DNA of 64,000 bases, from positions 832,001 through 896,000 of the forward strand of contig OZ220696.1 of the NCBI GenBank assembly GCA_965116495.1, in the 5' to 3' direction. The DNA comes from Gammaproteobacteria bacterium. GTDB taxonomy: Bacteria > Pseudomonadota > Gammaproteobacteria > Eutrophobiales > Eutrophobiaceae. Position numbers and translations under genes: made by a program. The notes beneath the pieces are model-generated. The model had not been told where the DNA came from, did not search any database, and was given only the letters and a program-made list of their open reading frames with translations. The stretch's first letter is position 1. The number at the start of each line of letters is the position of its first letter. Shown piece after piece: positions 1 through 64,000 of this stretch.

Positions 1-66
1 TTCAACTTCACTGCGCCTGTCATCCGCATGGGCCTGGCACGAGATCAGGCCGTAGCCAAACTTCAT
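1..66 (-). CDS. 5' part of a probable LLM-class flavin-dependent oxidoreductase (runs off the window)
   Basis: Reverse strand from ATG at 66 reads MKFGYGLISCQAHADDRRSEVE, the MKFG.. start typical of luciferase-like monooxygenases; divergent from the molybdoenzyme operon. Confidence 0.55.
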   Translation of the reverse strand, partial: MKFGYGLISCQAHADDRRSEVE

Positions 67-243
67 GGGTTTGCTCCAATGGCTGCAATCTGTTTATTCA
101 ATATAAGTATGGAACACGTTGTCCGGCTCGTACCTCAAAGCCAGGTTTTTGAGCTAGAGAAATTTCCTATGACCAAACCAACCGAACTCCGTTAGAATAT
201 ATCAGCAAACAAAGAATTAACAGCGCTAATCAACAGCCCGGTC

Positions 244-50802: not shown

Positions 50803-50980
50803 TGGGAATTACGAATTAGGAATGAATAGTTCATCTGCAGCGGAACTTGATCAACACCCTTGCCCCTCCAATTCGTGATAAAGACAACAAAGCCAGAACA
50901 TCCTCAGTGGGTTGTAAGTATTGCTTTAGCCTGATAACTATAGTATGATTTTCTGTAACAGTAATTCATACGAGAAAATC

Positions 50981-51196
50981 ATGAGAATTTCTGAACGAGG
51001 CCAGATTACCATTCCCAAGCAGCTGAGAGACCGCTTCGGCATGGGCTGTAACGTCGAGGTCGAGATTACTCCGACCGATGACGGCCTGCTCATCCGGAAA
51101 CAAACAGCTTCTCAACACCCGGTAGAACGGGTGTACGCTATCCTGGGACGCGACGGCAATACTGACGATTACATTGAAGAAATCCGCGGAAGGTGA
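50981..51196 (+). CDS. AbrB/MazE-fold antitoxin (VapB-type)
   Basis: MRISERGQITIPKQLRDRFG; overlaps the toxin start (GTGA). Confidence 0.9.
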   Translation: MRISERGQITIPKQLRDRFGMGCNVEVEITPTDDGLLIRKQTASQHPVERVYAILGRDGNTDDYIEEIRGR

Positions 51197-51588
51197 TCAG
51201 CGCCGTTGACACCAGCGTCCTTCTGGATGTATTTCTCCCGGACAAGCGCCACGGCCCCAGGTCTAAAGAGTGGCTTCGAGACGCCTATGATCGTGGGGCA
51301 ATTCTTGTCTGCGATGTGGTCTATGCGGAACTGGTGTCGGCATTCGAGGGCCGCAGCAAGCTCGACGAAGCGTTGAGAGAAATCAACGTAAAGATCTCTC
51401 CGCTCGATACTTCTATTGCTTATGAGGCCGGATTGCGCTGGTTGCGATACCGCCAAGCTGGCGGACCGAGAACGCGGATTATTACTGACTTCCTGATCGG
51501 CGCCCATGCCACTGCTCTGGCCGATACCTTCATTACCCGAGACCGCGGTTTCTATGAAACTTATTTCCCGGAGTTGAGAGGCTTCTGA
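51193..51588 (+). CDS. vapC: PIN-domain VapC toxin
   Basis: VDTSVLLD, VYAEL, DFLIGAHA, TRD acidic tetrad. Confidence 0.92.
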   Translation: MISAVDTSVLLDVFLPDKRHGPRSKEWLRDAYDRGAILVCDVVYAELVSAFEGRSKLDEALREINVKISPLDTSIAYEAGLRWLRYRQAGGPRTRIITDFLIGAHATALADTFITRDRGFYETYFPELRGF

Positions 51589-51601
51589 TATGATTTGATC
51601 G

Positions 51602-52858
51602 ATGCGTTTCTATGCCGATCTTCATATCCATTCTAAATATTCCCGCGCCACCAGCAAGGATTGTGACCTGGAGCACCTGAGCTTCTGGGGACAGAAAAAA
51701 GGCATCAGCGTAATCGGCACGGGTGACTTTACCCACCCGGCCTGGTTCGGACAAATAAAGGAAAAACTGGTACCGGCAGAGCCGGGGTTGTTCCGTTTGC
51801 GCGCAGATATTGACAGGGAAGTGACGGGGAAATTACCGGGAAGTTGTCACGGTATAACTCGTTTTATGTTATCGGTCGAGATATCGACTATTTACAAAAA
51901 AGGTGACAAGACACGCAAGATCCATCACCTGATCTATGCGCCCACCCTGGCGCAGGCCGAATTCATTAACCGGAAACTCGACCGCATCGGTAATATCAAG
52001 TCTGACGGACGTCCTATCCTGGGACTGGATTCCCGTCATTTACTGGAAATTGTGCTGGAGGCAGGGGAGGGCTGTTACCTGGTGCCTGCCCATATCTGGA
52101 CGCCCTGGTTTGCCGTGCTTGGGTCAAAATCCGGGTTTGATTCCATCGGTGAGTGTTACGGCGACCTGGCAGAGCATATCTTTGCCGTGGAGACCGGACT
52201 CTCGGCCGACCCGGAAATGATACGGCTGGTCTCCGACCTGGACCGTTACTGCCTGGTCTCCAATTCGGATGCGCATTCCCCGGCAAAACTGGGACGGGAG
52301 GCGTGTATCTTCACTACCGGACTGGATTATTTTTCCATGCGCCGGGCTCTGGAAACGGGTGATGGTTACGGCGGCACCGTGGAGTTTTTCCCGGAAGAGG
52401 GCAAGTACTACCTGGACGGACACCGCAAATGCAATATCCGCCTGATACCTGAAGAGAGTCGCAAACTCGACGGTATCTGTCCGGCGTGTCACAAGCCGTT
52501 AACCCTGGGTGTGATGCACCGCGTGCAGGAACTGGCAGACCGGACAAGTGAGAAAAAACTGGAGAATACCGACTCCTTCGTCAGCCTGGTTCCGTTGCCG
52601 GAGGTGGTAGCCGAAACGGCAGGCGTGGGACCAGCCACTAAACGGGTGGCAAAACACTATGATCAGTTGTTATACAAACTGGGCGCAGAGCTACCGATTT
52701 TGAATGACATCCCCCTGGAAGAGATCCGGAATCATTCCGGTTCCCCGCTGATCCCCGAGGCAGTCGCACGTATGCGCAAGGGAAATGTAATCCGTGAAGC
52801 CGGTTACGATGGCGAATACGGCAGGATCAAACTGTTCCATGAAGATGAATTGAAATAA
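51602..52858 (+). CDS. Endonuclease Q-like PHP-domain protein (TIGR00375-like)
   Basis: DLHIHSKYSRATS, GTGDFTHP, PAHIWTPW, ETGLSAD, SNSDAHS, GKY..DGHRKC..CPAC, GYDGEYG. Confidence 0.85.
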   Translation: MRFYADLHIHSKYSRATSKDCDLEHLSFWGQKKGISVIGTGDFTHPAWFGQIKEKLVPAEPGLFRLRADIDREVTGKLPGSCHGITRFMLSVEISTIYKKGDKTRKIHHLIYAPTLAQAEFINRKLDRIGNIKSDGRPILGLDSRHLLEIVLEAGEGCYLVPAHIWTPWFAVLGSKSGFDSIGECYGDLAEHIFAVETGLSADPEMIRLVSDLDRYCLVSNSDAHSPAKLGREACIFTTGLDYFSMRRALETGDGYGGTVEFFPEEGKYYLDGHRKCNIRLIPEESRKLDGICPACHKPLTLGVMHRVQELADRTSEKKLENTDSFVSLVPLPEVVAETAGVGPATKRVAKHYDQLLYKLGAELPILNDIPLEEIRNHSGSPLIPEAVARMRKGNVIREAGYDGEYGRIKLFHEDELK

Positions 52859-54202: not shown

Positions 54203-55525
54203 TCAAAGAGGAAAACGCCCGCTCAGATATAATGGATAACTATGCATGGCCGTTTTATGGTTGATTTCAAGATTTCGGGCGCTCAAGCGTGTTCGATAGG
54301 GTGGGGCATAGCGTCGCGCAAAGACATTAAGACTTTTTAATTTACCGGATTTCCCCGCTTTCACTTCAATCGGCAGAACCTGGCCGTCTGTTTCCAGCAT
54401 GAACTCAACCTCTGCCGTATTGTGCATCCAGCAATAAAGTGTTTTACCACTGGCTTGTGTTAATTCCTGGGCAACAAAATTCTCACAAAACGCGCCCCTG
54501 AACGTCGCAAACAGTTCAGCCCCCGTATATAGCGCAGCGGGTGAGAGCTGGGCCATGGCGCCCAGCAATCCAGTGTCAAACATGTACAGCTTGAACCGGT
54601 TTTCCTGGGCGAATGCCGAAAAAGGCAACTCTCCGGTGCTGGCGATAGGCGTCTTGATGACCAGACCCGCGCCGGCCAGCCAGTCAATGGCGCTGTGCAG
54701 GGTTGGGTAACTCCCTCCGGATACCGCCTTTGACGGCATAAACTTTTTATTTTCTTTGGCAAGCTGTGCCGGTATGGATGAAAATACCGCTAAAATTCGA
54801 TCCGACCTGAGCGGGCCGGCATACTTGGCAAAATCCCGCACGTAGGCATCCAGCAGGTCCCGTTGCCGGGCGCGCGCTTGTTCAAATGCTTCCCGGCGGT
54901 GTGCGCGGTTTCTCCTGTAAACGTCCACCACTTCCGGCAAGCCGCCAATAACAAAATATTCTTTCAGCAGTCTCAGGAGGTTTTCGTGGATAAGCTCCGG
55001 AATTCGGGTGTCCCGGGCAATATCCTGCAAATAAGCGAGCATTCTTGTCTCGCCAATGGCTCCTGCAAACTCCATAAACGACAACGGGTAAAGATCCAGG
55101 AAGGTGGCCTTGCCGACGGGAAAGGAATCGTCCGCGTGGACAAGTCCCAACAACGAACCGGCACAGCAAAGGGCCAGTTCAGGCATTTTCTCACAAAAGT
55201 ACTTGATGCTGGTAAGGGCGCGGGGGCAATCCTGTATTTCATCGAATATGACCAAGTCGGTTTGTATATCAATATCAGCGTCGAGGAAAAACTCCAATGA
55301 CTCGATAATGCCGTTTGGAGACAAAGAGCCTTGGAATAAAGTGTTAAGTTCCGGGTTCTCCTGAAAGTCTGCAACGTGGCAGGCCGGAAAATGCAGTTTG
55401 CCAAATTCCTTCAATATATATGACTTGCCGGTTTGTCTGGCTCCCCTCAGCACAAGCGGTTTCCGTGCAGACGCCTGTTTCCAGGCGATCAGGTCCTGGG
55501 TGATGTCGCGGGTTATGGAATCCAT
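54203..55525 (-). CDS. AAA_14 ATPase with C-terminal DUF4143 nuclease-like domain
   Basis: GARQTGKS, FDEIQ, GGLPEV, KLYMFDTGL, ENFVAQEL, EVEF...IEVKAG. Confidence 0.88.
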   Translation of the reverse strand: MDSITRDITQDLIAWKQASARKPLVLRGARQTGKSYILKEFGKLHFPACHVADFQENPELNTLFQGSLSPNGIIESLEFFLDADIDIQTDLVIFDEIQDCPRALTSIKYFCEKMPELALCCAGSLLGLVHADDSFPVGKATFLDLYPLSFMEFAGAIGETRMLAYLQDIARDTRIPELIHENLLRLLKEYFVIGGLPEVVDVYRRNRAHRREAFEQARARQRDLLDAYVRDFAKYAGPLRSDRILAVFSSIPAQLAKENKKFMPSKAVSGGSYPTLHSAIDWLAGAGLVIKTPIASTGELPFSAFAQENRFKLYMFDTGLLGAMAQLSPAALYTGAELFATFRGAFCENFVAQELTQASGKTLYCWMHNTAEVEFMLETDGQVLPIEVKAGKSGKLKSLNVFARRYAPPYRTRLSARNLEINHKTAMHSYPLYLSGRFPL

Positions 55526-56390: not shown

Positions 56391-58502
56391 TCATCTCCCC
56401 TCTAAAAAATCCTCAAAAAATTCCGATACCGGTTCAACCCCGGATATCAGCAGGCGATCTCTCGCCCGGGTACAGGCAACGTAGAACAGGTGTCGCTCAG
56501 TTTCATACACTTCGTCCAGTTCGTCTTCATCGGCAACAGTTTCAATGCGCTCCTGTGAGGGCAGAATGTCATCGTCGCAGGCCATCACTACAACAGCCTG
56601 GAATTCCAGGCCTTTTGCCAGATGCATAGTGGCGATGGAGATACGGCCATCCCGGTCTTCCACCCGGTTGGAAAGTTCCAGGGGTGTTTGTTCTGCCAGC
56701 TTGACTACCTCACGGGCACGCGGCAATTCATTGTTGCTGCGTACAAATATGCCAACCTCTTCCGGATTTATCCCGTCCTCTATGATTTTCCGTACCCAGG
56801 CAGCCACTTCTTCGGTTTCCTGGTGGGCGTCATCAAATGTCTTGACTTCAGGTTCGAGGCCGTTGAAAACCGAAATAACGTCCCGCCGGTTTTCCTCGTT
56901 TCCATCCACATCCCTGATGACATCCGGCAGGAGCCGATCAGCTGCTCTCCTGATCTGGTGGGATGTGCGGTAATTGACTTTCAGGGTGTGGGAACGCCCG
57001 CGTATGTCGACACCCAGCGCCTTCCATGAGAAAGGCCGCTGGAAGATACGCTGGCCGATATCGCCGCTGAAGAACAGCGCATCAGGGTTGTCCGCTTTCA
57101 TCGCTGTAAACAGCCTGAGTTCGGGTACGCCCAGGTCCTGGACCTCATCGACAATGATATGGGTAAAAGGTTTATGCTCCTGTGTAGCGAAATATGCCGT
57201 CACCTCTCTGCAAATCTCCGGCCAGGTATGTAGCCCTTGCCTGGTGAGTAACTCCCGACAGCGAGCGAACACCGGCCAGGCTCTTTCCCGTTGTCCTGAA
57301 CTGATGCGGCTGCGGCGTCCGATACGCGGCACGTTCTGGTAGATTTCCAGGCTATCAACCTGCCAGGCATCGATGACATTGCGCCATTCAGAGACAAGAA
57401 ATTGAATGGTGAATTTCGTATTCTCAAGCTCGTTTGCTGCCGTTTCCAGCGCTCGTTTTACCTGTTCTTCCTTAGCAATTCTGGGCGTGCGGCCGAATGC
57501 AAGTGTGTAAAGTTCAATCGCAACCCGCTCGAACGGCAGGATTGTCACATTGGTATTCCCGTTACCGGTCAGCACACTCAACTTATGTTTCAATGCGTTG
57601 GCAAGGGGCAGGGAAAAGGTTGTCAGAAGAACTTTGGCTTGCCTGTCTTTCTGCAAAATCGCAGCAGCGCGGTGCAGTGTCACCACGGTTTTTCCCGTTC
57701 CCGCTGAACCGGACACGCGGGCTGGGCCATTGAATTGCCGATCCACCAGGCGCCGTTGCGAGGGATGGAGGAATATCGCCCATTGTTCCCAGGGGTAAGC
57801 CAGTGCTCGTTCCAGTTCTTCCATATTTTCCATTACCCGAAACCGGCGTTGCGCATCCGGGTGCTCAAAAGGATCGGTTCCGGGAATTACAGGCGCTGGC
57901 TGGGGCAGGGCGCCGGTGCTGACATAGTCGAGCAACGCTTCAGACGCCTCAGCCGGCAGGTGCTCGGCAATGTCGAGAAACCCATCTTCCGAGGCTTGCA
58001 GAATATTCTCAACCCAGTCCTCGGGCACACCGACACCAAGTAACGCTTGTTCTGACAAACTGAAAAATGGACCTGGAAGGTAAGGCTGGTCTGGAGTATC
58101 GGCAACGCTATACGCTAATGTATCCATATCTTCGAAGTAAGGTATTGCAACCTTTTCAACCCGCTCAGGCACCTCAATTACCTGAACAGCGCCGGTTTTA
58201 GGATGGGTTTCAATTCGTCTTCGTTCCGTCCATTGATAGGCTTCATCGTGGTGACCGACATAACATATTAAAAAGCTGTTTTCGGTCTTGTGGACGATTA
58301 CCCGGATGTCCATGTTTACGCTAACAGACCAGAAGTGCGGATCTCTGGAGCCAGAAACACGGTGTAACCGCAAACCAGTCGCTGCTGGGTTTTGCTGCAA
58401 GTCAAAAACCGTAATCTTTGCAGCTTTCTGTTCCTGGCCTTTCAGCTTGTCCAGTGCTTTTGAAAAGCTTTTTGCGATGAGGAACTGCGCCGGTTCGGTC
58501 AC
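56391..58502 (-). CDS. UvrD-like SF1 helicase with N-terminal RelE/ParE-like domain
   Basis: FLHPSQ, GSAGTGKT, IVDEVQD, GDIGQRIF, NYRT, HLAKGLEF, YVACTRAR; first ~95 aa follow a RelE-like pattern ending YVGHHDEAY. Confidence 0.85.
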   Translation of the reverse strand: MTEPAQFLIAKSFSKALDKLKGQEQKAAKITVFDLQQNPAATGLRLHRVSGSRDPHFWSVSVNMDIRVIVHKTENSFLICYVGHHDEAYQWTERRRIETHPKTGAVQVIEVPERVEKVAIPYFEDMDTLAYSVADTPDQPYLPGPFFSLSEQALLGVGVPEDWVENILQASEDGFLDIAEHLPAEASEALLDYVSTGALPQPAPVIPGTDPFEHPDAQRRFRVMENMEELERALAYPWEQWAIFLHPSQRRLVDRQFNGPARVSGSAGTGKTVVTLHRAAAILQKDRQAKVLLTTFSLPLANALKHKLSVLTGNGNTNVTILPFERVAIELYTLAFGRTPRIAKEEQVKRALETAANELENTKFTIQFLVSEWRNVIDAWQVDSLEIYQNVPRIGRRSRISSGQRERAWPVFARCRELLTRQGLHTWPEICREVTAYFATQEHKPFTHIIVDEVQDLGVPELRLFTAMKADNPDALFFSGDIGQRIFQRPFSWKALGVDIRGRSHTLKVNYRTSHQIRRAADRLLPDVIRDVDGNEENRRDVISVFNGLEPEVKTFDDAHQETEEVAAWVRKIIEDGINPEEVGIFVRSNNELPRAREVVKLAEQTPLELSNRVEDRDGRISIATMHLAKGLEFQAVVVMACDDDILPSQERIETVADEDELDEVYETERHLFYVACTRARDRLLISGVEPVSEFFEDFLEGR

Positions 58503-61270
58503 ACTTCAAACACCTTCATCACCTCATCGCCGAAATGGTTAATGACCTTGACGGCAAACCGTCCCGTTGACGGACGCGTAAACGGGCGGGATTTGTCGCG
58601 GTACAAAGTCTCCCAGGCTTCCTTATCGATTTCCGCTTTTAGGCTGGTTTTCAAAGATTTGTAAGGGTCGCCGGCGCCCATGAAATACGCGTGGCGAACA
58701 AAGAAGCTTTCCCTGTTGTAGTCGGTGTCGATAAACCAGGCGGCGATTTCATCTTTGCCGCTTGGGCGCACTTCACTGGTTTTCGGGTCAAATACGTCCA
58801 CTCCCAGAACTTCGACCACGATATTGCCTTCATCATCGAAGTCCCATTCGATATCCGGTTCACCGAAGACGACAAACAGGTTGCCCGATCCGGTATTTTT
58901 CAATTCTTCCGACATATGCAAGTCGGTATTCATCCGTGCTTTCAGGATCGGCAGCGGGCCAAGCTTTGTCAGTTCCGAAGTATGGGCGTCGAAGTTAAAA
59001 CCACAGGCAATCAGAGCATCAAAACGATCGCGTTGGGCTTCACTGGCAGCATTTGCCAGGTCGGACTGCGTAATGGTGCCGTACTCCGGGCCGATGAATA
59101 TGCCGGCCCGTCTTTCGTTACTGCTTTCCGTATAGTGACCGACGGCGGCAATGTATTCTCCAGGCCAACCCTCTATGGTGGAGAAGGTTATCCTGTCTTC
59201 TTTAGCAACCTGTTGAACGCCGGCAGACTTCATATTTTCCAGTACCATCTGCGTAAAATCATTGAGGGGAATGGCCTCACTAACTCCCTCTTGGCCAGTG
59301 TTCTCATCCGAAGCATACGAATAATCGTCATCAGCTGATACCATGCGATGGGGAGATAGGCTTTCCACGGTAAACGGACCGGAAACTCTCACTCTGGTGT
59401 TATCCGTGTATGGCTTATCGTAGAGCGTTTCATAGTCAGCCTTGGCAGCGATGGATGCATCGATCTCCTTTTGTCTGTCAATGCGGGCTTTCCACCATTC
59501 GCTGTGACAGAGTTTAGCTGTCTCCGGCCAACTGTCTTCCTCGTCACGAGGCACCTCCCATTCCTGCCATTCCTGGTGTAGTTCTGCATTGAGTTGTTTA
59601 CGCAAGGGTTCCAGCGTTTCCTGGTATTTTTCCCAGAGCACGTCTATTTCGGCATTGTTGGCAATGGATTTGAGCGTGATGTGGGGCACCCGTTCATAGA
59701 CAAATCCTTGCCGAATATTACCGTAAGTGGGGTCTGATTTGGGTATTGTTTGGGCCAATTCCGCTTCTTTCATTTGGCCTTCCGTGGAATCTCTTAACAG
59801 ATAATAGGGGTAGCGAGCGCCCATAATTCGGGCACGGGCCAGTGCCAGGGCAACGCGTGAGGTATCGATAGTAATCCATCGGCGTCCCCACTGTTCGGCT
59901 ACGTAGGCGGTGGTGCCCGAGCCACAGGTAGGATCGAGGACAAGGTCGCCAGGATCGGTGGTCATAAGGAGGCAACGTTGCACTGTCTTCGTGCCTGTTT
60001 GTACAACATAGATCTTATCGTCTGTGAAGCTTCCAGTACCGGTGTCTCTCCAGAGTTTTGATACTTCTGTTACAGGAAAGTCATCAAGTCGCCGTACGTA
60101 CTGGAGGCTATTTTGTGCAATATGCAATCGATTGGCTTTCTCTAACCTTGATAGACCATTTGTAGTGGTCTTGGACCGAAACCTGTAACTTTTCCCGTCA
60201 AGGTTATACTTGATGTAGGGGTTGCCTTGAGAGGTGATATTGTCTGCTTTATATATAAAATACCCATCTGGAACCTTGTTCTCTGATTTTTCTTCCTTAG
60301 TCATACTCCGGTATTCGCCTCGGGAATCTCGAATCCATGTATAGGTTGATGCGGTTCCATCTTCTCGGTTCTTAGAAAGATAAGGTTGTCTAAACTTAAT
60401 ACAATCAGAGTCCTTGCCGTACCAGAGCAAATAATCGAAACGATCCGCTAAATACTTAGACGATAAACCGCTCGTCTTTACAAATGCCAATTCACCCATG
60501 AAGTTGCTATTTCCAAACACCTCATCCATTACCGCCCGTACCCGGTGAACATTCTCATCCCCAATCTGCACGAATATAGAACCACTCCCCGACAGTAAAT
60601 CTCTTGCCACCGTCAACCGATCGCGCAGGTAGGTCAGGTACGAGTGTATACCATGCTTCCATGTGTCTCGAAATGCCTTCACTTGTTCCGGTTCCCTGGT
60701 AACGTGCTCCATTTTGCTGTCCTTCACATCCCGTGAGCGGGTGGACACCTGCCAGTTGGAATTAAACTTGATGCCGTAGGGCGGATCGATATAAATACAC
60801 TGCACCTTTCCCCGCAGTCCTTCGCGCTCCGCCAGACTTGCCATCACCTGCAGGCTGTCTCCCAGGATCATACGGTTTTGCCAGTTCTGGTCGTGCTGGT
60901 AGAACTCGGTTTTGTCGGCATCCCCCAGGCCGTTGAAATCGGCAAACAGGTCCAGTTCGACAGGTGATTCATCCCGGCGGGAGTCTGCCTGCCGTTTCAG
61001 GTCGTCGATGATCGCCTTGGGATGAATTTTTTCCTGGATGTAGAGGGGTGGCGCTTGCACCACCAGGTCCGACCAGTCCTGTTCGTCCTTGCCGCGCCAG
61101 ACGAGTTGCGGATCCAGGTCTTTATTTCGGCGTTCGTAGCTGACCTGAATTGGAGACTTGTCTGCCTCGTGCAGGGAGGGTTCGTATTCTACGGTGGGAA
61201 TATTCTTTCTCGTGGCTTCCTTGTGAGTAAGAGTTTCTACCTGTTTTGCGGAATGTCGTCTTCTGGGCAT
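58499..61270 (-). CDS. mod: Type III-like site-specific adenine DNA methyltransferase (Mod, beta class)
   Basis: IDPPY (motif IV) precedes LDPTCGSGTT (motif I); long C-terminal extension ending AVKVINHFGDEV. Confidence 0.9.
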   Translation of the reverse strand: MPRRRHSAKQVETLTHKEATRKNIPTVEYEPSLHEADKSPIQVSYERRNKDLDPQLVWRGKDEQDWSDLVVQAPPLYIQEKIHPKAIIDDLKRQADSRRDESPVELDLFADFNGLGDADKTEFYQHDQNWQNRMILGDSLQVMASLAEREGLRGKVQCIYIDPPYGIKFNSNWQVSTRSRDVKDSKMEHVTREPEQVKAFRDTWKHGIHSYLTYLRDRLTVARDLLSGSGSIFVQIGDENVHRVRAVMDEVFGNSNFMGELAFVKTSGLSSKYLADRFDYLLWYGKDSDCIKFRQPYLSKNREDGTASTYTWIRDSRGEYRSMTKEEKSENKVPDGYFIYKADNITSQGNPYIKYNLDGKSYRFRSKTTTNGLSRLEKANRLHIAQNSLQYVRRLDDFPVTEVSKLWRDTGTGSFTDDKIYVVQTGTKTVQRCLLMTTDPGDLVLDPTCGSGTTAYVAEQWGRRWITIDTSRVALALARARIMGARYPYYLLRDSTEGQMKEAELAQTIPKSDPTYGNIRQGFVYERVPHITLKSIANNAEIDVLWEKYQETLEPLRKQLNAELHQEWQEWEVPRDEEDSWPETAKLCHSEWWKARIDRQKEIDASIAAKADYETLYDKPYTDNTRVRVSGPFTVESLSPHRMVSADDDYSYASDENTGQEGVSEAIPLNDFTQMVLENMKSAGVQQVAKEDRITFSTIEGWPGEYIAAVGHYTESSNERRAGIFIGPEYGTITQSDLANAASEAQRDRFDALIACGFNFDAHTSELTKLGPLPILKARMNTDLHMSEELKNTGSGNLFVVFGEPDIEWDFDDEGNIVVEVLGVDVFDPKTSEVRPSGKDEIAAWFIDTDYNRESFFVRHAYFMGAGDPYKSLKTSLKAEIDKEAWETLYRDKSRPFTRPSTGRFAVKVINHFGDEVMKVFEV

Positions 61271-61285
61271 TTGCTGTGGCGTCAG

Positions 61286-61720
61286 TCACTGATTCCGATA
61301 AGCCCTGATTTCATTTCGGACGTCGTCTTCCGTGATGTCATTCTCCAATGTCCGTTTTTTGCCATAGGAATAAATCTCCTCCCACACGGCCTGACGCGAC
61401 GAAAAGTGGTAGACCCCGATCTCAGGCCTGGTTTTTAACATTGATACCACTTTGGGTATCAGTGGTTCCAAATCCTGAACGCGGGTACGGTATGAAACAA
61501 GAACAATGATAGTGACGGGTAGGGTATCCGGATTCTGTTGATATTCCATGCTCCTGTCCGTTGTAACGAGAACATCAAAACCCTGCCGGCTTGCAAGTGC
61601 CAATAATGATCCGTTCTTTATTCCGGCCCAGCCCATTTGAGGCACTGTTCTGATGTAAAATGTATCAGGGAAACTACGGGCCAAACGTCGGGGGACGGAC
61701 TCGTCAAAGAGTAATTTCAT
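61286..61720 (-). CDS. DUF5615/PIN-like toxin with extra C-terminal tail
   Basis: MKLLFDESVP, GWAGIKNG.LL, FDVLVTTD..MEYQQN; overlaps DUF433 gene by 17 bp. Confidence 0.8.
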   Translation of the reverse strand: MKLLFDESVPRRLARSFPDTFYIRTVPQMGWAGIKNGSLLALASRQGFDVLVTTDRSMEYQQNPDTLPVTIIVLVSYRTRVQDLEPLIPKVVSMLKTRPEIGVYHFSSRQAVWEEIYSYGKKRTLENDITEDDVRNEIRAYRNQ

Positions 61721-61949
61721 CTCCCTGATTGGCGAATTGGTCGAGGGCCAATTTGATAGTCTGGATAGCCTGACTACGGGTCACACTGGGAAAATTGTCA
61801 AGAAAATCATCGAGGCGGTCACCTGCTTCAAGGTGTTCCGATAGTATGCGTACAGGTACTCGCGTACCGGCGAAAACAGGCGTTCCTCCCAGGACCTCCG
61901 GGTCACAGGTAACAACCGAATGATATATCTGCGGATTCTGCTTGTCCAT
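61704..61949 (-). CDS. DUF433 family antitoxin
   Basis: DPEVLGGTPVFAGTRVPV, DFLDNFPSV. Confidence 0.9.
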   Translation of the reverse strand: MDKQNPQIYHSVVTCDPEVLGGTPVFAGTRVPVRILSEHLEAGDRLDDFLDNFPSVTRSQAIQTIKLALDQFANQGDEITL

Positions 61950-61956
61950 GACGCCA

Positions 61957-61962
61957 ATTATA
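61957..61962 (-). promoter_or_regulatory. Perfect -10 box 7 nt upstream of the DUF433 ATG (possible leaderless transcript)
   Basis: Minus strand reads TATAAT TGGCGTC ATG, with no Shine-Dalgarno sequence. Confidence 0.45.
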
Positions 61963-62002
61963 GTACAACCAACACCTGTTCAACAATAAAGATATCCTAT
62001 GC

Positions 62003-64000
62003 TCACTGCTTGTCATATTCAGCGTCACCTGTATTATCCCATAGCTTGTTTAATCGCGCTTCCGGCGCGGCCATTGCTGCTTTGGTCAAGTTTATGGACT
62101 CGGTATGGTTAACCATCTCATTGAAGGCTACCTTGATTTTTTCCGTGAGGTCACTTTCCATCGCATAGACATCGGAAAGCTCTGCAAAATCCCAGCGGCC
62201 GAAGCTGCCCAGGTTGTTGACACCGACCAGCCATTGGGTGCGCATGGTCTCAGACTTCAGTTTGACATTTTCGTGCCTGTAGCCTTTGATCTCTACGATC
62301 AAATGCAGGGGATCATCCAGCCCATTTCCGTCATCAATCAAGATGATAAAGTCGGGAATGTAAAGCCGTGCCGTTGAGCCATCCTTGTATGGAACGTCAA
62401 AGCCCAGCCCCTGGTTTTTAACGTAAGAGATTACCTTGGGATGTTGTTCCACCACCCGGGCAAACTCGGCTTCCCAGCCGCTATCGACAACTACGTAGTT
62501 TATATGACACTTGTCCGGTGCCGTCCCATATACCTTTTTGGTCGTATGGAAATTGACATGGGCTGTGGAGGATGCCGGGTTGTAGGGATCAAGCACTGCG
62601 CGAATTCTGTTTTTGTCCGGCATGGCGTCCACCATGGCGTTGTAGATACGCTCACAGGCCTGGTCCGCGATATCCCGGTATTCCAGCATCCACTTACCGG
62701 TGTTGCCTTTGCACTTGAGGTAGCCGCCGTCAATCCACTGGCGAGCGATACGTTTTATATCCCCAAACAGGTGCATTTTGGGTTGTTGGTCTTTGTCCCT
62801 GAAGTACTTGTAAAGCAGGTGTTTGGACAAGTCAAAAGCGATGGTGCTGGGGCGCTTGGCGCGGGCCTCTGCCGCGGAAATTGTCTCGCCTTTGCCGACA
62901 ATTCCCTCCATACGGGTCTCACCCGGACCTACCATCTCCGGAGTCAGTTCCAGTTTCGAGTCTTCAGTGAAATTTGCGCTCAGCTTGTGCCTGGGCAACT
63001 CCACCCGGTATCCGGTGACTCGCGGAAAGGTGATTTCCAACGCCGCACGTTCACGGACGGCGTGAACGTGTGTCCTGGGTGGTGGCGGTGGTGGTGGCGG
63101 TATGGGTGGCTGCTTCGCGGTGAAACTGAACGGAATGCCCATGATGTCGGCGTATTCCACCGGCAGCAGTTCATCGTCATCCAGCTCGTAAGAGTAACGG
63201 CGCAAGCTGCGCCCGACGACCTGCTCGCACAGCAACTGGGTACCGAACGCCCGAATACCGAGGATATGGGTGACCGTATTGGCGTCCCAGCCTTCCGTCA
63301 GCATGGCAACGGAAACCACGCAGCGCACCTGTTCACCCAGGCGGCCCCTCTTGCCGATAGTGTTCATCACTTCGCGCAGCAGTTCCGCATCTGACAGGTT
63401 ATCCGCGCTGCCGGCGCCGTCGCGTATGGCTTTTTCGCGTTTGAACTGTTCGATCTCGAGCGCCGCTGCCTTGCGGAAATTTGTATCCAGCGCCTCGCCC
63501 GATTCAATCTGCTTGCTGTCGATCAGCAGGGTATTGGGGCGGGGCAGACGGTCGCCGTTTTCATCAAAGTTCCGAAACAATGCCAAATGACCATTCTGCG
63601 CGAATACATCTTCACCATCTTCGTCAGGCCGCTGCCAGCCGGATATCCATTCATAGACCAGTCTGGATGTCGTCGTGTTGTTGCAGACCACGATGAATAC
63701 GGGTGGAGTGTCTATGCCGGCCTGCTTCCAGCGCTCGTGGGTTTTCCCATAATGGCTGTACAGTGTATGCAGTGCAGTCTGGAGCTTATCCGGCAAGGCA
63801 AGCGGGTCGCCTCCTGTCTGCCGACCTTTTTTGGGCATGTCCTTACCTATGTGTTTCCAAAGGTCGCGAAAAACCGGAAAGTCTTCGGTCAGGATGTTAT
63901 CGGACACAGGCACCCGGGGCAGTTTGACGATGCCGCACTCGATGGCATCCATGAGGGAAAAATCACTGACTGTCCAGGGGAACAGGGTTCCCTCAGCCCA
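62003..64000 (-). CDS. res: Type III-like restriction endonuclease Res (5' end outside window)
   Basis: Frame open to the window edge; SF2 motifs SVAMLTEGWD and QVVGRSLRR; C-terminal YIPDF...VEIKG PD-(D/E)xK nuclease. Confidence 0.88.
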   Translation of the reverse strand, partial: WAEGTLFPWTVSDFSLMDAIECGIVKLPRVPVSDNILTEDFPVFRDLWKHIGKDMPKKGRQTGGDPLALPDKLQTALHTLYSHYGKTHERWKQAGIDTPPVFIVVCNNTTTSRLVYEWISGWQRPDEDGEDVFAQNGHLALFRNFDENGDRLPRPNTLLIDSKQIESGEALDTNFRKAAALEIEQFKREKAIRDGAGSADNLSDAELLREVMNTIGKRGRLGEQVRCVVSVAMLTEGWDANTVTHILGIRAFGTQLLCEQVVGRSLRRYSYELDDDELLPVEYADIMGIPFSFTAKQPPIPPPPPPPPRTHVHAVRERAALEITFPRVTGYRVELPRHKLSANFTEDSKLELTPEMVGPGETRMEGIVGKGETISAAEARAKRPSTIAFDLSKHLLYKYFRDKDQQPKMHLFGDIKRIARQWIDGGYLKCKGNTGKWMLEYRDIADQACERIYNAMVDAMPDKNRIRAVLDPYNPASSTAHVNFHTTKKVYGTAPDKCHINYVVVDSGWEAEFARVVEQHPKVISYVKNQGLGFDVPYKDGSTARLYIPDFIILIDDGNGLDDPLHLIVEIKGYRHENVKLKSETMRTQWLVGVNNLGSFGRWDFAELSDVYAMESDLTEKIKVAFNEMVNHTESINLTKAAMAAPEARLNKLWDNTGDAEYDKQ

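Follow-up and report, generated by a model that had tools for sequence, protein, structure and literature searches.

A RelE-UvrD helicase of the ArmD family as a recurrent, optional third gene of a type III-like restriction-modification operon

Does a helicase gene that overlaps the end of a type III-like restriction-modification (RM) operon belong to it, and what could it contribute there? The question is raised by a locus at the end of the 64,000-nucleotide stretch analysed here (the window; positions 832,001 to 896,000 of contig OZ220696.1, assembly GCA_965116495.1, from a gammaproteobacterium). Descriptions of type III systems give them two genes; they methylate one strand of an asymmetric site, and their ATP-dependent cleavage needs two inverted sites. 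The initial annotation had read five co-directional minus-strand open reading frames at this locus. Their coordinates and the junction sequences bear out that reading, including the spacing along the operon: a 53-bp gap between res and DUF433, a 17-bp overlap of DUF433 and PIN, a 15-bp gap between PIN and mod and a 4-bp GTGA overlap of mod and helicase. The features are:

62003..64000, minus strand: 3' part of res that lies in the window, encoding a superfamily 2 (SF2) helicase with a C-terminal PD-(D/E)xK nuclease of the BPTD_3080 family; core gene
61704..61949, minus strand: predicted antitoxin (Pfam DUF433); passenger cassette
61286..61720, minus strand: PIN-like predicted toxin (Pfam DUF5615); passenger cassette
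58499..61270, minus strand: mod, 923 amino acids (aa), beta-class adenine methyltransferase; core gene
56391..58502, minus strand: ArmD-like RelE/UvrD protein, 703 aa (Pfam UvrD-helicase/UvrD_C); optional third core gene

The whole res gene reaches beyond the window edge to the window-equivalent position 65164 and encodes 1053 aa when counted from TTG. The operon is composed of three core genes, res, mod and helicase, and of a DUF433/PIN pair that is a passenger. The helicase, which had been proposed as a dedicated third component, is a recurrent companion of this res-mod subfamily and co-descends with it.

Recurrent linkage of RM-clade members to res and mod was found when the neighbourhoods of helicase homologues were surveyed, for which the best 80 of 95 relatives in GTDB genomes were used. 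These divide into 55 that are closer to the window helicase (the RM clade) and 25 that are closer to ArmD of the ARMADA type II system; in quick trees the RM-linked and ArmC-linked helicases form separate clades with a support of 100. Upstream of the helicase, mod is present in 43 of the 55 RM-clade loci, and the remaining 12 either have less than 600 bp of upstream sequence (5), are C-terminal remnants (5) or end within 3.5 kb (2). On the ArmD side an ArmC-like gene lies upstream in 22 of the 25 loci and mod in 0/25. The RM-linked clade extends over Pseudomonadota, Acidobacteriota, Planctomycetota, Verrucomicrobiota, Chloroflexota and Gemmatimonadota, and among viral contigs (n=25) 13 of 16 RM-clade helicases follow mod, the other three being incomplete.

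Co-occurrence is given as counts, with no P value, because related genomes are not independent. For the phylum draw, 400 Pseudomonadota genomes were drawn evenly and the close Res subfamily was defined by at least 52% identity. An RM-clade helicase, in some cases partial, was present in 20 of 28 Res-positive genomes versus 3 of 372 Res-negative ones; the genes share a contig in 14 of these 20, always in the order res-mod-helicase, and are on separate contigs in 6. The res-mod-helicase subfamily is therefore found in ~5% of the sampled Pseudomonadota genomes (20/400), plus at least five other phyla. In the class draw (400 genomes, one of which was not scored for helicase; a 199-aa Res fragment in G012 was not counted) the helicase was present in 6 of 19 Res-positive genomes versus 3 of 381 Res-negative ones. 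Three of these six helicases are intact at the locus, two are broken and one lies ~35 kb away. The helicase clade is bound up with this Res subfamily; in subfamily B (Res identity ~33%), where mod often stands before res, no helicase was found in the loci fetched (11 Res rows).

Co-descent was assessed in the 36 loci in which res, mod and helicase are all full length. The helicase core has 12 of 16 supported splits in common with Res (one minor conflict) and 10 supported splits with the Mod C-terminus (0 conflicts), whereas with Mod residues 256-420 there is one split in common and 11 are in conflict; shuffled controls gave at most two common splits. As splits are shared with Res and the Mod C-terminus and not with Mod 256-420, the frame was passed on as one unit, with exchange of the presumed specificity region.

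These data bear on the possibility that the helicase is a self-contained defence gene, a single-strand DNA sensor with an RNase, and is merely carried along as the last gene of a mobile RM cassette. Both operon gaps are indeed filled with independent systems (SIR2-HerA, IetAS, ABC-3C, GmrSD, HicAB, MNT-HEPN), family members occur in other contexts (a Thermus plasmid; a sacsin/NOV protein) and a few orphans exist. However, the cargo turns over, yet the helicase keeps its terminal position and shares its descent with Res in several phyla, Res-negative genomes seldom have it (3 of 372 and 3 of 381), and ArmD without its partners gave no protection according to the available part of the ARMADA report (PMC12458937). 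We therefore regard such a passenger role as improbable.

Res, Mod and helicase could on the other hand be the obligate parts of one non-classical machine, like the four proteins of ARMADA, the helicase-free loci then being decaying or weak. This would agree with the presence of the helicase in 14 of 14 single-contig intact res-mod loci of the phylum draw and with the weak match of Res to PADLOC type III models and to no solved structure. In addition, the helicase-negative loci, several of them with a broken mod, nest within the helicase-positive clade of the Res tree (FastTree, unrooted), which fits an origin by loss. Against such a machine stand the subfamily-B loci mentioned above and five loci from four families (G001, G224, G231, G070, G039) with intact res-mod and no helicase match in the genome. 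These five loci indicate that the helicase is optional and that any benefit is conditional, so that an obligate machine seems quite unlikely.

By their sequences, Res and Mod look type III-like. The two genes are adjacent and co-directional, as type III RM requires, with the DUF433/PIN pair inside the gap. The whole res gene passes the NCBIfam BPTD_3080 cut-off with 1293.7 bits, and its product contains PF04851 (ResIII) and PF19778 (endonuclease) with the motifs ATGSGKT at 186, DEAHH at 322, YIPDF at 935 and EIKG at 958. The PADLOC model REase_III matches Res weakly (for the 3' part E is 2.6e-7, and with the whole protein there is no match at 1e-8), and a search of solved structures (PDB) with Res gave no match. 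Mod is matched by Pfam N6_N4_Mtase and by PADLOC MTase_III PDLC03632 (1243 bits across residues 46-923), its motif order with DPPY (motif IV) at 162 before motif I at 446 is that of a beta-class N6 methyltransferase, and its closest solved relatives in the PDB are type III Mods, EcoP15I among them. The central region 256-420, presumably the target recognition region, is swapped among relatives, and the long C-terminal part is conserved. The catalytic motifs of Res, Mod and helicase are all intact. The Mod C-terminal part, for which Atlas matches are unnamed clusters only, was considered as a helicase-specific docking domain, which was rejected as it is also present in subfamily B, lacking the helicase in the loci fetched. 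No Res region was found that differs between the 36 helicase-positive and 8 helicase-negative loci.

The RelE-like N-terminus that had been ascribed to the 703-aa protein proved real in structure predictions. A RelE fold (~5-93) is followed by a helical middle (~146-240) and a UvrD-type ATPase with Walker A at 265-272 and DEVQD at 452. The full-length predicted model (predicted local distance difference test, pLDDT, 82.7) matches UvrD, PcrA and Rep, and that of residues 1-242 (pLDDT 89.5, predicted template modelling score, pTM, 0.83) matches RelE-family toxins (Foldseek 3bpq_B, E 4.6e-4) and YafQ (Z 10.6, root-mean-square deviation 2.1, 86 aligned). For the middle region 146-240 no fold match of its own was obtained, though the match list was filled by the RelE domain. 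The sequence-only RelE match is weak, with a best Pfam E of 0.015 for the window copy; a search with an N-terminal profile gave 968 clusters (50% identity level) at E values up to 1e-30. All 38 RelE-like N-domains compared have R67, H85, A88, Y89 and W91, and H85 and Y89 would correspond to YafQ H87 and F91, judged from the aligned range 4..90 to 3..92 rather than from a residue-level alignment. These two YafQ residues matter for cleavage, as stated in the available part of PMC4652777. The RelE domain is under purifying selection, with a ratio of nonsynonymous to synonymous substitution rates (dN/dS) of 0.08-0.24 in nine of ten pairs (those computable).

Aligned over 709 aa, the window helicase and E. 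coli ArmD (Z5902) are 30% identical (E 8e-94, and 1e-17 for the N-domain). The DNA of an E. coli plasmid homologue is 99.2% identical to that of the O157:H7 gene, and the protein contains K266 and D454, at which ArmD was mutated. In the available part of its description ArmD is a GajB-like helicase with a RelE-like N-terminus, ARMADA II requires all four genes, the Walker A mutation K266A of ArmD abolishes defence and this defence is non-abortive (PMC12458937); a second report, likewise available in part, found each ARMADA II gene to be needed in the native host (PMC13463889).

Taken together, we propose, with a probability of about one half, that the locus is a type III-like RM operon whose optional ArmD-family third gene acts, by analogy, as an amplifier switched on when Res generates ends or single strands in phage DNA. 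Judged by family, Mod would mark host sites and Res would cut unmarked DNA. At rest, the RelE-fold domain would be kept off within the helicase protein. As in the analogous GajB and ArmD, the UvrD motor would load on cut DNA ends or single strands and hydrolyse ATP, and the helicase would then unwind the cut phage genome or hold it. In doing so it would also expose its RelE-fold domain, leading to transient cleavage of ribosome-bound mRNA, and the cell would mostly survive. GajB is described, in the part of the source available, as sensing DNA termini created by its nuclease, after GajA nicks (10.1101/2023.05.02.539174).

Several points weigh against this amplifier. Linked genes co-descend even without joint function, and the pattern is no proof of contact. 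The five intact res-mod loci without helicase show that any benefit is conditional. Furthermore, R61 and A92, each at least 90% conserved elsewhere, are Ser and Thr in the window copy, and its RNase may therefore be weakened. The RelE domain of ArmD is not among the mutants reported in the available part of PMC12458937. Finally, GajB defence is itself abortive, which would suit a rival better.

That rival is a PrrC-like guard, in which Res and Mod silence the RelE domain until phage anti-restriction proteins release it and cause cell death or arrest. The initial annotation had suggested such an abortive-infection role, or else a sensor of phage single-stranded DNA or forks; its dedicated companion has held up, while the abortive guard has been weakened. 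The toxin fold with conserved putative catalytic residues and the optional nature of the helicase, as expected of a backup, would suit a guard, and such logic is described for RM-linked HEPN RNases in the available part of PMC3710099. However, ARMADA with ArmD is non-abortive (PMC12458937), and deletions of armA, armB or armC that retain armD were built and grown, as far as PMC12458937 and PMC13463889 are available. Helicases also outlast broken partners: in G271 an intact helicase with its RelE motif lies ~35 kb from a split mod, and in G114 one stands beside a broken mod with no res found. The guard is thus unlikely, and the amplifier remains our preferred reading.

The DUF433/PIN pair had been taken as a second suicide layer, which did not withstand comparison: none of the other 35 complete loci has it between res and mod, and it is RM-free in the congener G781, where it is found at 90% identity and no res, mod or helicase match exists. 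Of 12 congeners, three have res-mod-helicase and lack an intact pair. Elsewhere among 210 loci the DUF433/DUF5615 pair occurs as a decayed stub (L006), before the helicase (L032) and near a subfamily-B Res (L145), with no others found. A five-gene system was rejected, since the pair is not kept in other complete loci and stands alone in G781. The res–mod gap is below 100 bp in 13 of the 36 complete loci and the mod–helicase gap in 16; wider gaps hold changing cargo (PIN, GIY-YIG, GmrSD, HicAB, MNT-HEPN, Fic, SIR2-HerA, IetAS, ABC-3C), and the DUF433/PIN pair is swappable passenger cargo of this kind. A perfect TATAAT lies 7 bases ahead of the DUF433 ATG.

Res tails vary among relatives, which had suggested a Res-antitoxin fusion controlling the PIN toxin. 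This idea was rejected: the last 19 Res residues (window 62003-62073) match the DNA preceding the DUF433/PIN cassette in G781 and are therefore interpreted as a scar left by insertion. An additional C-terminal tail of the PIN protein (window 61286-61400) is present in G781 too, and both ends look like scars of earlier cassette insertions.

Some of the gap cargo is without a Pfam match at the cut-offs used (L012 4968-6065, L015 5021-6214, L020 6537-7199, L126 5815-7521, L050 8972-9976 and L168 5772-6863), and these genes are candidates for unnamed defence genes. An AbrB-VapC toxin-antitoxin (TA) pair followed by a TIGR00375-like gene lies on the plus strand of the window at 50945-52858. In L003 and L005 the TIGR00375-like gene also adjoins the operon, and in G781 it is next to the solitary DUF433/PIN cassette; its recurrence at these sites therefore marks a genus-level insertion hotspot. 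Both operon gaps are a hotspot at which defence cargo, known and unnamed, could be mined.

Just outside the window, 137 bp before res and on the same strand, is a gene for a 508-aa Fic-domain protein (L001 13302-14828), SoFic-like by PADLOC and with no counterpart at this place in close relatives. An AAA_14/DUF4143 gene (window 54203-55525, minus strand) matches PADLOC PDC-S01 with 466 bits and has a second copy elsewhere in the genome. Large repetitive, secreted-looking proteins of 1441 and 3248 aa are encoded upstream of the locus (G000:C1:900398-904723 and 912827-922573). RelE-UvrD proteins in other settings stand between BrxL and a 1716-aa exonuclease/RecQ-like gene on a Thermus plasmid (L084 12469-21167), after a sacsin/NOV-domain gene (L162 9051-16106) and after a TrkA/RyR-domain gene (L156 438-4521). 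P0145 (1951 aa) combines a RelE-UvrD module with a PD-(D/E)xK domain and a further superfamily 1 helicase in one protein. On a viral contig (L200 4689-12085) the helicase and the 3' part of mod come after two genes that by their N-terminal sequences resemble type I hsdR and hsdM.

No tRNA was found in the 64-kb window, a promoter scan gave 12 hits where 13.5 were expected and a search against 50,697 GenBank phages gave no match. In one RNA run 0.08 of the words were present, with a few short contigs. In the low-depth run X6 one contig carries ~356 extra bases at window 55995, and in a second contig 61491 is joined to 60534 in reverse (59807-61491); these differences may be assembly errors.

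The initial annotation knew of no earlier description of the arrangement. This stands for the res-mod link, as no paper connecting the RelE/UvrD helicase family to type III res-mod was found in the open-licence literature, and fails for the helicase family, of which ArmD is a tested member. Anantharaman and Aravind reportedly placed RelE-helicase fusions near restriction genes in 2003. The parts are thus known already, and the res-mod-helicase combination was not found in print within that literature. The available parts of PMC3710099 and PMC7251935 contain no description of this locus.

Among known systems, the passenger pair resembles the COG2442/DUF433-PIN family, a common predicted type II TA family in which the DUF433 gene directly precedes and overlaps the PIN-like gene, as far as PMC2701414 is available; there is no notable difference, the window pair sitting inside the res-mod gap. 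With type III RM of the EcoP15I kind the locus shares adjacent res and mod, type III Mod relatives, ResIII and endonuclease domains and the swapped central Mod region. In contrast, Mod has 923 aa here versus 644, the window Res has no solved-structure match and a third gene is usual. Gabija GajB is likewise a UvrD-like ATPase serving a nuclease, and PADLOC GajB models match parts of the window helicase; however, the latter carries a fused RelE-fold domain, and Gabija membership was rejected as no GajA, an OLD-family nuclease, was found beside it by Pfam or PADLOC. CnuH of the restriction-derived CoCoNuT system is predicted to combine a helicase with a RelE-like domain, but its context is McrBC-type and its predicted RelE-like domain lacks sequence conservation to known toxins, according to the available part of PMC11090510.

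ARMADA type II is similar in the RelE-like/UvrD architecture of ArmD and the window helicase, in having the helicase as last operon gene beside an adenine methylase and an SF2 helicase-nuclease, and in the RelE structure 3BPQ as top structural match for both proteins. It differs in that the ArmD clade is separate from the RM-linked one in quick trees, the partners are ArmA/B/C there and a BPTD_3080 Res with a beta-class Mod here, and ArmD is essential there while the helicase is optional here. Membership of the operon in ARMADA was rejected, neither ArmB nor ArmC (YprA helicase) being found at the locus; genome-wide tblastn gave only a weak 71-aa match for ArmC and none above 40 bits for ArmB among the matches listed, ArmA not being a query. 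Tentatively, RelE-UvrD may be a portable effector of unrelated methylation-based defence machines, among them ARMADA II and this type III-like subfamily, leading from a DNA cut to RNA cleavage, and the operon an undescribed three-component restriction system. If this were true, res-mod-helicase would couple DNA restriction to a translation-blocking RNase. A common type III-like subfamily retains a third gene with an essential relative in ARMADA II, and a three-gene system with an optional helicase offers a simpler setting in which to learn the function of ArmD-type proteins.

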